DNA of 64,000 nt from a virus (IMGVR_UViG_2713896909_000009:32673-96672), one strand, 5' to 3'; counted from the stretch's first letter, positions 14,309-17,365 are shown. Notes: generated by a model not told the origin, from the letters alone. Numbers and translations: made by a program.

Positions 14309-14384
14309 TGGTGGCCCCTACCGGACTCGAACCGGTGACCGTGCGATTATGAGTCGCCAGCTCTAACCACTGAGCTAAAGGGCC
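14309..14384 (-). tRNA. tRNA-Ile2 (anticodon CAU, lysidine type) or tRNA-Met
   Basis: 76-nt cloverleaf on minus strand: GGCCCTT acceptor, loop CTCATAA, TTCGAGT T-loop, CCA encoded; anticodon arm matches E. coli ileX. Confidence 0.85.
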
Positions 14385-15093: not shown

Positions 15094-15234
15094 TGGTTAT
15101 CCCTCAATAAAAGTGACATATTTATTAGATTGCGGTGCCGGGTGCCTCCCGGTGACGTTAACCAGTTAACAATTAACGCCGGAATGTTTAATCATCAAGG
15201 AGGATTGTTTTAACTGTTCCGCGTGCGCTTAGCC

Positions 15235-15329
15235 GCATTCACCACAACGGAAAGAGCATTTATGGCTCGCATCGCGGGAAAAAGCCCACGGTAGAGAGTC
15301 GAACTCTACAAATACTCTTACCTGTTGTG
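15235..15329. repeat. dispersed repeat unit 1 (conserved flanks forming a long terminal stem)
   Basis: Left flank GCATTCACCACAACGGaAAGAG, right flank CTCTTACCTGTTGTG; variable interior with internal hairpin GTAGAG-AGTCGAA-CTCTAC. Confidence 0.6.
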
Positions 15330-15382
15330 TGCTCCGTTTCGTGGAGCTAACGGCGGAGTAATCATCCGCCTCAAATTTATAA

Positions 15383-15958: not shown

Positions 15959-16061
15959 GCATTCACCACAATGTTGAGAACACTGGTTGTCACGCGGCAA
16001 CGCAACATTTATTCATAGGTTGGGAAATGAACCCGTTACGCCAATGTTCTCAACGTTGTAG
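15959..16061. repeat. dispersed repeat unit 2 (variant flanks)
   Basis: GCATTCACCACAATGTTGAGAACA ... TGTTCTCAACGTTGTAG; same outer CACAA/TTGT(A/G)G ends. Confidence 0.5.
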
Positions 16062-16191
16062 TGCCGGTTACGGTTCCGGCCAGGCCTCTTCCTCAACGGG
16101 GTGTTCTCCGTACGGACTACCGTTTATTGGTCGTTCCTGCGGTTTATGTTGTGAAGCCAGATGCTTATCTTCTGGTTGCTTCAAAGAGCTG

Positions 16192-16267
16192 CACTTCATC
16201 ACAACGGTAAGAGCACTCGATGCATTTAAGCCAAGCCCCATAAGGGAGAATGCCCTTACCTGTTGTG
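16192..16267. repeat. dispersed repeat unit 3
   Basis: CACTTCATCACAACGGTAAGAG ... GCCCTTACCTGTTGTG. Confidence 0.6.
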
Positions 16268-16387
16268 TTGTGATGACCGGTGCTGATCTCCGGCTTGCGG
16301 TTATTTCAGACTCTCACGGGCGTTTAATTGCCCCGCCGGACAGCTCTTTTCCGCAATAGCTGCAATGTCTTTCGCGCATCAGCCTGC

Positions 16388-16482
16388 GCATTCATCACAA
16401 CGGTAAGGGTACTTCGTAGGGATTCGAACCCTCTGCCAAGCTCGGCGATCTCCGACGTCGCAAAATACCCTTACCTGTTGTG
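16388..16482. repeat. dispersed repeat unit 4 (abuts 3-prime end of tRNA-like gene)
   Basis: GCATTCATCACAACGGTAAGGG ... CCCTTACCTGTTGTG; interior contains AGGG-ATTCGAA-CCCT hairpin. Confidence 0.6.
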
Positions 16483-16483
16483 C

Positions 16484-16616
16484 TGGTGCCGGTTAACGGA
16501 TTCGAACCGCTGACCTCTGGCCTAACATCGAATCGTTGTCATTTGACCAGCAAGGCTGTCTACCGAAGTAGAAACGATGCTTTGGCTCTCGTGCTCTCCC
16601 ACTGAGCTAAACCGGC
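16484..16616 (-). tRNA. tRNA-like gene with about 58-nt internal insertion (identity unresolved; Thr by P1 synteny)
   Basis: Canonical 5-prime end GCCGGTT-TA-GCTCAGTGGGAGAGC and 3-prime end AGCGG-TTCGAAT-CCGTT-AACCGGC-A-CCA, but 80 nt lie between D-arm and variable loop. Confidence 0.45.
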
Positions 16617-16618
16617 AT

Positions 16619-16694
16619 TGGCGATGGTGGGTGGATTCGAACCACCGACCAGTTAGTTAACAGCCAACTGCTCTAACCGCTGAGCTACACCATC
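16619..16694 (-). tRNA. tRNA-Asn (anticodon GUU)
   Basis: 76-nt cloverleaf on minus strand: GATGGTG acceptor, anticodon loop CTGTTAA, T-loop TTCGAAT, CCA encoded. Confidence 0.85.
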
Positions 16695-16963
16695 ACTTGC
16701 CGGGTACGTCTCCGGCGAGGGCTTCCACCTCCGTATGCTTTTCGGCGCACCGCGCCCTGGCTGCAATTCGGTAACAGGGGATGCATAACCCTGGCTTCCA
16801 GCGTGATTAGCGCTTTCAGCATGACGGGATATACCCGTAAATTCGTGGAACTGTACCCAAAGTGCTGTTAAGCACCGCTGTTACGCTGAAAAGAAGACGC
16901 AACAGGAAAGGACGCTGACCAACAGATGGCCCCTTCTCGTTCATCTGGTTAATCACACCAGCG

Positions 16964-16978
16964 CCCTTACCTGTTGTG
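16964..16978. repeat. solo right-flank remnant of the repeat family
   Basis: ATCACA directly joined to CCCTTACCTGTTGTG without interior. Confidence 0.35.
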
Positions 16979-17365
16979 CCTCCCCGTTCCCTAATACACA
17001 GACGGGGACACTCTGCGGTCGATTTTTTGACGGGGGACGACTCATACCCCGTGGCGTCTGGCTTCTTAGGCCGCAGCCATCATCAGATCATCGTTTGCAT
17101 TTACTTTAATGGTCAGTTTCTAAACCGCCGCAAAGTCGCTAACCATGACGAAAACCCTGAAAAAACGCCCACCCGAAGATGGGCAAACAGGATGTAAGCT
17201 CGTTACGCATTTCGGTATTGCCACTTAGGCGTATGGTCAACCTGGCAACTCGGCGTCATGAGGGGGAAGGAGTCACTACCCCGCCATACTTGCCGCCGCG
17301 CCTGTCGCGGCTAACAGCTAAATCGCTCTATAAATCACGATTCATTGAAACCATATTACACTAAT

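Follow-up and report, generated by a model that had tools for sequence, protein, structure and literature searches.

What kind of RNA is encoded by a gene that has the acceptor stem, D-arm, T-arm and CCA of a tRNA and is 133 nt rather than 76 nt long? The gene in question lies on the minus strand at 16484..16616 of the window, that is, the whole stretch of 64,000 nucleotides analysed here, whose source is a P1-type phage-plasmid; the window carries the C4 antisense RNA together with its targets and is collinear with the ban-operon region of P1. The initial annotation had described a tRNA-like gene with a 58-nt internal insertion and had offered three options, namely an intron-containing tRNA, a tRNA disrupted by a small element, and a tRNA-derived structured RNA. 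Its coordinates proved exact: a covariance model built from the family alignment described below (model R1) matches the gene end to end with 138.9 bits. A covariance-model search found no second copy of the 133-nt element in the window, where it is single copy.

The tRNA frame and the region in place of the anticodon arm

Read on the minus strand from 16616 to 16484, the frame is GCCGGTT-TA-GCTC-AGTGGGA-GAGC-A-[81 nt]-AGCGG-TTCGAAT-CCGTT-AACCGGC-ACCA, which bears out the canonical arms and CCA of the initial annotation. The 5′ acceptor strand GCCGGTT (16610..16616) pairs with 16488-16494 and is followed by U8 and A9 (16609-16608) and by the fully (100%) paired D-arm GCTC-AGTGGGA-GAGC (16593..16607). 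On the other side, GTC (16514-16512) leads into the T-arm AGCGG-TTCGAAT-CCGTT (16495..16511), of which GG-TT..A..CC is invariant in the family, and the gene is closed by the 3′ acceptor strand AACCGGC, the discriminator A and an encoded CCA (16484..16494); the CCA is gene-encoded in some lineages only. U8, A14 and one D-loop G are invariant across the family alignment.

A canonical tRNA-Asn(GUU) (16619..16694, minus strand) lies upstream, 2 nt from the element, and by homology with the P1 ban operon the two probably form one transcription unit. In P1, JL22 and Ro157c2, the slot just after tRNA-Asn holds an annotated 76-nt tRNA-Thr(UGU). The same tRNA can be read from the alignment in the slot of pLF82, an unrelated SSU5-type phage-plasmid whose PLSDB table lists no RNA genes. 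A comparison with P1 tRNA-Thr, suggested at the outset, was the right lead, in that the enterobacterial copies carry the frame of this tRNA. Identity between the element and tRNA-Thr runs from G1 into the D-stem and resumes at the GTC before the T-stem through to CCA, and the 3′ side of the element matches P1 tRNA-Thr at 25 of 27 nt and pLF82 perfectly. Both genes occupy the same slot 2 nt after tRNA-Asn and share an identical or nearly identical acceptor, 5′ half of the D-stem, T-arm and CCA; however, where tRNA-Thr has its ~19-nt anticodon stem-loop, the element has ~76 unrelated nt without an anticodon. The extra length noticed initially is thus real, but the net excess over P1 tRNA-Thr is 57 nt (133 versus 76) rather than 58, and it results from ~19 nt being swapped for ~76 rather than from an insertion. 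Loops in the replaced region are of 3-4 nt, and it contains no 5-bp stem with a 7-nt loop carrying U33 and an anticodon; because it has no 7-nt anticodon loop, the element cannot read codons. Judged from these alignments, the anticodon arm is replaced, not interrupted.

The size excess in the anticodon region could alternatively reflect an intron that is spliced out to leave a functional 76-nt tRNA, and ARAGORN in intron mode can indeed be forced into such a model. However, the forced models of homologues name Ser-cga, Val-gac, Arg-ccg, Arg-tcg, Ile-tat, His-gtg, Lys-ttt and Leu-caa, with introns starting at 30-39, and they differ in isotype, anticodon and intron position even between 93%-identical copies, so that this check, also proposed initially, returned no consistent intron. 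In the tRNA-Thr alignments, no combination of flanks gives an anticodon stem-loop, and conservation is higher in the presumed intron than in the parts that would be exons. A group I catalytic core (P3-P8) typically takes 200 nt or more, whereas the net excess here is only 57 nt, and no Rfam intron model matches at E<=10. Contradicted by the alignments, by the disagreement among ARAGORN models and by the pattern of conservation, a spliced tRNA is highly improbable.

A family across nine phage lineages and its consensus structure

The family as assembled here has 17 distinct element sequences from nine phage lineages, its more distant copies having come from BLAST and pattern scans of IMG/VR and metagenomes; the lineages comprise P1-like and SSU5-like phage-plasmids, N4-like phages of E. 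coli and Pseudomonas, jumbo-phage contigs of 135-341 kb, and temperate Yersinia-type prophages. Copies identical to that of the window (100%) occur on three E. albertii IncY (P1-like) plasmids, 97.7% identical copies on six E. coli plasmids of 106-115 kb, and 92-93% identical copies on three Salmonella plasmids; the copy in E. coli phage Jgk1 is 89% identical, and that of Pseudomonas phage Littlefix (N4-like, Schitoviridae) is 74% identical to the Jgk1 copy. Further members lie on a 341-kb contig (L030, with L053/L054), on contigs of 135 and 259 kb (L067, L072) and 171 kb (L066), on a 70-kb N4-like contig (L071), on a 43-kb contig (L057, with L064), and in a temperate, Yersinia-phage-related group of 42-48-kb contigs and two short fragments (L056, L059, L060 and L069). 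In this last group (e.g. L059 5323-5452, minus strand), the acceptor can be extended to 9 bp (GATGTGGTG/CACCACATC) with ACCA after it, and an A.A mismatch occurs in the T-stem; the mature ends may follow either the 7-bp or the 9-bp register. Among 5426 complete E. coli genomes, six have the element, always on a plasmid.

Homologues were found via exact-match anchors inside the core, so the diversity of the family is under-sampled and the invariance of hairpin H1 and junction strand J7 (see below) is partly an ascertainment effect. Scans anchored on either side gave the same members, the metagenome scan gave minor variants only, and the last two viral scans gave no further members. In the genome-contig collection, every match was a chance one in coding sequence, and many other pattern matches, likewise chance hits in coding DNA, were left out of the 17. 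On present sampling, the family appears rare and patchy, and alternates with tRNA-Thr in one slot. The acceptor stems are different in every lineage while the core is nearly invariant, which points to selection on the core sequence and on the shape of the frame.

The replacement arm is about three times longer than an anticodon arm, and consists in order of a C-G pair, a conserved purine-rich loop of non-Watson-Crick oppositions (RAGA/CAGA), a 3-bp helix (Pa), a small internal loop, a 7-bp helix (Pb) and a four-way junction. In the core, a helix is followed by UU as a linker, by three mini-hairpins and by AACGAU(U/C), which is unpaired. In the window (all on the minus strand), strand J5, CGAGA (16587..16591), faces strand J3, CAGAG (16515-16519), across a symmetric loop between the D-stem and Pa that reads 5′-C-R-A-G-A opposite 5′-C-A-G-A-G in most lineages (L057 and L066 differ). 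Its oppositions are the closing C-G pair (15/17), R.A, A.G (15/17), G.A (14/17) and A.C (12/17). A K-turn reading of this loop was rejected, because the strands are symmetric (5 nt/5 nt) and there is no 3-nt bulge. Helix Pa pairs GCC (16584..16586) with GGC (16520-16522; together with J3, 16515..16522), and its GCC/GGC becomes CGG/CCG in L056. Helix Pb pairs AGCATCG (16575..16581) with CGATGTT (16524..16530), and its pair 41:95 is C-G in 8 members, G-C in 6, G-U in 2 and U-A in 1; this pair flanks AUCG/CGAU. Beyond the UU linker (16574-16573) stands hairpin H1, TCTAC-TTCG-GTAGA (16559..16572), the tetraloop hairpin recognized in the initial annotation, whose stem is invariant in 17/17 members and whose loop is UUCG, UCCG, UUAG or GUAA. 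Hairpins H2 (CAGC-CTT-GCTG, 16548..16558) and H3 (GTC-AAAT-GAC, 16538..16547) both vary in the sequence and length of their loops, and in Littlefix the H2 stem is re-paired as CCC/GGG and the H3 stem changes from GTC/GAC to GGC/GCC. The unpaired junction strand J7, AACGATT (16531..16537), is nearly invariant; its AACGAT is the same in 15/17 members, with one change each in Jgk1 and L051.

The alignment of the 17 sequences was made by hand around the proposed structure, with N padding for register. In this alignment, 98.0% of 642 cells are in standard pairs versus 84.3% in column shuffles, and 18 of the 38 pairs changed on both sides versus 10.2 expected; none of 500 shuffles reached the observed value in either measure (0/500 each). 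The covarying pairs include 7/7 of the acceptor, one of the D-arm, 3 of the 5 in the T-stem, 3/3 of Pa and two of Pb. As a control, the 3′ partners were slid by 1-3 columns, upon which pairing fell to 28-44%. RNAalifold, run on the same hand-made alignment with no structure given, returned the same 38 pairs, and all 38 form in the window copy. The shared family structure is therefore strongly supported: the element combines an upper tRNA half with an intact elbow (U8, A14, the D-loop G and the T-loop UU..A) and a closed long arm that ends in a four-helix junction. One ambiguity concerns the 3′ strand AACGAU-U-CGAU, with which AUCG(UU) pairs in two registers with equal pair numbers. A perfect four-way junction (AUCGUU/AACGAU) was considered and set aside, as the structure described above (model 1) is favoured by ~4 kcal/mol in every member, and none of the registers tested gave any member a better energy. 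The natural variants of Jgk1 and L051 break the alternative CGAU register and not model 1; covariation itself does not separate the two CGAU registers, and the alternative is a possible second conformer.

This structure also bears on whether the gene is simply dead, that is, a tRNA-Thr gene ruined by insertion of a small mobile element, or an assembly artefact. The position of the element in the tRNA-Thr slot and its rejection by standard tRNA finders would agree with such an origin. However, complete plasmid and phage assemblies made independently of one another contain identical or near-identical copies, the element shows no terminal repeats or target duplication, and substitutions in both frame and insert preserve the structure throughout the nine lineages; 98% pairing with 18 compensatory pairs is not expected of a dead gene. 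Covariation contradicts decay or artefact, which we regard as scarcely credible. The same selection on structure, acting on frame and insert alike across nine phage lineages, leaves the tRNA-derived structured RNA as the one of the three initial options that held.

Genomic context, origin and annotation

The only constant neighbours of the element are tRNA genes, which form arrays in most lineages. No protein family beside the element was found to be common across lineages, and the cross-lineage 'ORF' matches were spurious frames through the RNA; the absence of a conserved protein neighbour fits a free-standing RNA gene. In the window, the element probably lies within the C1-repressed ban operon, as judged by homology with P1. 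A cis-acting processing signal, whose tRNA shape would draw RNase P or RNase E (tRNA punctuation) and whose head would modulate the stability or translation of the neighbouring RNA, could suit this position inside the long, structure-rich ban-operon leader. It could also suit the L056/L059 lineage, in which the element stands alone in an early-operon leader with no tRNA nearby; a promoter-like region lies just upstream of it, and the ribosome-binding site of an ORF follows ~20 nt after its end. However, punctuation needs no near-invariant 76-nt head, the Littlefix element comes last in its transcription unit, opposite a convergently oriented RNA polymerase gene, and has no downstream gene to regulate, and in most lineages the element is one unit of a tRNA array. 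A cis-processing role is unlikely.

The element does abut a repeat unit, as initially described: repeat copy D2 (16464-16485) touches its 3′ end. Five long-stem units were seen on the minus strand (~15238-15332, 15962-16063, 16195-16270, 16391-16485 and 16889-16981), with the pattern 5′ CACAAC-A-GGTAAGRG ... CYCTTACC-GTTGTGATGAA 3′, in which one A seems to be bulged out; the insert enclosed differs from unit to unit. The unit directly after the element (16391-16485) is itself tRNA-like, with a T-arm AGGG-TTCGAAT-CCCT, a D-arm-like hairpin GCGA...TCGC and an 'acceptor' of much greater length; the unit is conserved in P1, and in the Salmonella plasmids, too, the element is followed by units of a similar kind. 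Upstream of a tciA homologue, one long-stem unit is overlapped at its 3′ arm by a partial match to the Rfam sRNA family STnc100 (15131-15246, minus strand; 47.3 versus a gathering score of 47, model positions 31-147 of 206).

As to origin, a frame matching that of a resident tRNA, tRNA-Thr, is confined to the enterobacterial copies; outside the enterics the element has an acceptor of its own, which was found in no neighbouring tRNA. Many members share the D-arm (TAGCTCAGTTGGTAGAGC) and the GAGGTC/T-loop sequences with one another and with ordinary tRNAs. In addition, the 3′ 30 nt of the Jgk1 copy are part of a 'tRNA-Ile' of its sister phage Moo19. This Shigella phage gene (L086 2463-2535) is a chimera, in which a true tRNA-Ile supplies the 5′ half and a Jgk1-type element the 3′ end, with the junction at GAGGTCA; ~1.1 kb has been deleted, the acceptor strands do not pair, and the annotation as tRNA-Ile is probably wrong. 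The idea of a mobile cassette was dropped for the reason that a deletion chimera is evidence of frame recombination, not of cassette insertion. It does show that recombination at GAGGTCA happens. Taken together, the tRNA-Thr frame confined to enterobacteria, the shared D-arm and T-loop sequences and the Moo19 chimera suggest, as the simplest history, that the enteric allele arose by recombination joining the core to a local tRNA-Thr frame.

Standard annotation handles these genes poorly. Run on the retrieved loci, model R1 scores members at 108-152 bits versus <=56 bits for true tRNAs at the same loci. ARAGORN in default mode does not call the window copy, nor does the Rfam tRNA model (RF00005), which has a gathering score of 29 and gives it 13.5 bits; with this model the frame alone brings four other members to 35-47 bits. 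The NCBI pipeline labels the 97.7%-identical copies 'tRNA-OTHER', and all six E. coli genomes carry the label, within an Asn-Tyr-OTHER-Ser cluster. With such genes either labelled 'tRNA-OTHER' or missed, censuses of phage tRNAs miscount. Rfam 15, searched at gathering thresholds and at E<=10, has nothing on the core, and the searchable literature yielded no paper with the core sequence or a description of such a family. The family is apparently undescribed: the broad kind, tRNA-derived stable RNAs, is known, and the core is new.

Further tRNA-shaped genes, over-long or degenerate and likewise left uncalled by ARAGORN, were noticed at L004 3585-3713 (Jgk1), L072 1895-2001, L067 677-785 and L037 3918-3989 (Littlefix). 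The one in Jgk1 is 129 nt long, with the acceptor TCCAGGA/TCCTGGA, a T-arm, ACCA and a body different from that of the element. RNAs built on a tRNA frame seem to come in several kinds in the tRNA regions of phages. Elsewhere in the window, ARAGORN calls a tRNA-Met(CAU) at 14309-14384 (minus strand), whose P1 counterpart is annotated as tRNA-Ile2 (CAT, ileX-like) and would read AUA after lysidine modification.

Possible role and comparison with known RNAs

Phage tRNA clusters are usually seen as aids to codon usage or, lately, as counters to tRNA-cleaving defence; the element adds that they also carry a conserved RNA that has the shape of a tRNA and does not decode. We lean towards reading the locus as a member of a conserved phage family of non-decoding, tRNA-derived structured RNAs that are matured like tRNAs and whose head binds a partner in trans. 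The element would be transcribed with the phage tRNA genes and, in P1-type elements, under the C1-repressed ban operon, that is, on lytic development. The tRNA half would recruit host maturation, with RNase P at the 5′ end, 3′ trimming and addition of CCA where it is not encoded, and would confer tRNA-like stability as a natural tRNA scaffold. The conserved junction head would then be the working part that binds in trans. As to the partner, one guess is a tRNA-handling protein, such as a tRNA-directed defence nuclease or toxin or a tRNA-processing enzyme, for which the RNA might serve as an uncleavable decoy or inhibitor.

The element is rare and patchy and alternates with tRNA-Thr, and in this it resembles accessory conflict genes. 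Phage tRNAs have already been reported to counter tRNA-cleaving defence (PMC11464382). On these two grounds, a tRNA-mimic decoy or inhibitor is the reading of the role that we favour, as a speculation. Against a decoy of anticodon nucleases stands the lack of an anticodon loop in the element, which one would expect such a decoy to retain. No acceptor identity element is conserved, which makes aminoacylation unlikely and interactions that depend on a charged tRNA doubtful. A small-molecule pocket or a catalytic core could explain conservation centred on the junction just as well as a protein-binding site. More tentatively, and with considerable doubt, the element may be a natural tRNA-scaffolded effector common to very different kinds of phages, whose junction head is a high-affinity ligand that either blocks a tRNA-directed immune nuclease or toxin or acts as an aptamer soaking up an immune signal, and which passes from phage to phage by recombination in the conserved D- and T-arm sequences, so that it can take the place of a resident tRNA gene.

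A ligand-binding aptamer or small ribozyme on a tRNA frame, acting as a sponge or sensor of a metabolite or immune nucleotide or as a self-cleaving motif, would account for the concentration of conservation where several helices meet (UU, AACGAU and, in H2, the first and last pairs) with varying peripheral loops, a pattern typical of riboswitches and ribozymes. On the other hand, a threshold relaxed to E<=10 brought no match to any riboswitch or ribozyme family in Rfam, the invariant sequence of the H1 stem is unusual for a purely structural peripheral helix, and the element has no expression platform and no conserved gene to control, all of which makes this reading unlikely.

The head and its presumed trans partner offer a directly accessible problem, as the element is small and well defined, and sister plasmids with tRNA-Thr in the slot provide a natural control. 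Temperate phage-plasmids, lytic N4-like phages and jumbo phages all carry the same core, and their hosts include Escherichia, Salmonella and Pseudomonas.

Among known RNAs, tmRNA resembles the element in topology. Its tRNA-like domain has an acceptor and a T-arm, with a long helix in place of the anticodon arm, and is matured by tRNA processing enzymes; in both RNAs this helix leads to structured elements. A tRNA mimic associated with the ribosome or related to trans-translation could moreover be tied to an SsrA-tag-like template that lies 0.5-0.95 kb upstream in the window, the SSU5-like plasmids, Jgk1 and L071. However, tmRNA has G3.U70, a reduced D-arm, pseudoknots, a tag frame and ~360 nt, whereas the element has a full D-arm, no conserved ORF, 133 nt and, at 3:70, a C-G pair in the window instead of the G.U that specifies alanine charging (U-A in 9, C-G in 7 and A.C in 1 across the family). 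By eye, no frame or stop is conserved in the core, and frames end variously or never among members; the ARAGORN and Rfam tmRNA models are silent on the element, in P1 the template goes together with an ordinary tRNA-Thr, and in several lineages that carry the element no template occurs in the flanks examined. A tmRNA-like function is therefore very unlikely. A proposed kinship between core and template (AAAUGACAACGAU versus AAAUGCAAACGAU) was discarded as being at chance level, 20% of shuffles doing as well.

The template is an observation in its own right. This SsrA/tmRNA-style degradation-tag template lies at 17098-17066 (minus strand), at the 5′ end of the ban-operon leader, and is also found in P1 (L001, the 'dicF-like region'), the Salmonella plasmids (L006/L007), Jgk1 (L004 ~3086-3118) and L071 (~350-382). 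The encoded tags are ANDDLMMAAA* in the window, ANDDLMMVAA* in P1, ANDNQYLAVA* in the SSU5-like plasmids and ANDDVVLMAA* in Jgk1 and L071; the E. coli SsrA tag is ANDENYALAA. ARAGORN finds no tmRNA in the window, Jgk1 or the Salmonella plasmid loci, and the Rfam tmRNA_permuted model, whose gathering score is 47, reaches 21 bits in the window and, in L071, 36 bits (E=2.5e-4). The template may belong to a phage mini-tmRNA, a two-piece tmRNA or a tmRNA mimic.

YrlA (RF02553) likewise fuses a tRNA-like module (T-arm and D-arm) to a long stem; however, its ends lie in the long stem and its acceptor-like stem is closed, whereas the ends of the element form the acceptor and its long stem is closed. 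Identity with YrlA was rejected, the match reaching 21.4 bits versus a gathering score of 69 and spanning two adjacent genes, namely the T-arm of tRNA-Asn and the D-arm of the element. RNAC and RNAD of phage T4 (species 1 and 2) are also stable RNAs of ~120-140 nt from a phage tRNA cluster, and their role was still described as unknown in reviews of 2010 and 2022 (PMC3014915, PMC9697503). RNAC has a T-arm and an acceptor-like stem like the element but, unlike it, no D-arm. Homology with rnaC/rnaD was dismissed, as there are no shared core motifs and model R1 matches true T4 tRNAs only; the element may nonetheless help to explain this type of RNA.

One parallel in design is man-made. In the 'tRNA scaffold' of Ponchon and Dardel, reportedly engineered for recombinant RNA expression, the acceptor, D and T arms are kept and the cargo replaces the anticodon arm. 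The design principle is the same, in that a cargo in the place of the anticodon arm is processed and stabilised like a tRNA; the scaffold is a laboratory construct and the element a natural gene family under selection, and the analogy is one of working, not of ancestry. If the head does bind a host or defence factor, the family would add RNA-based effectors of a new kind to those of phages, and the engineered scaffold would have a precedent in nature.
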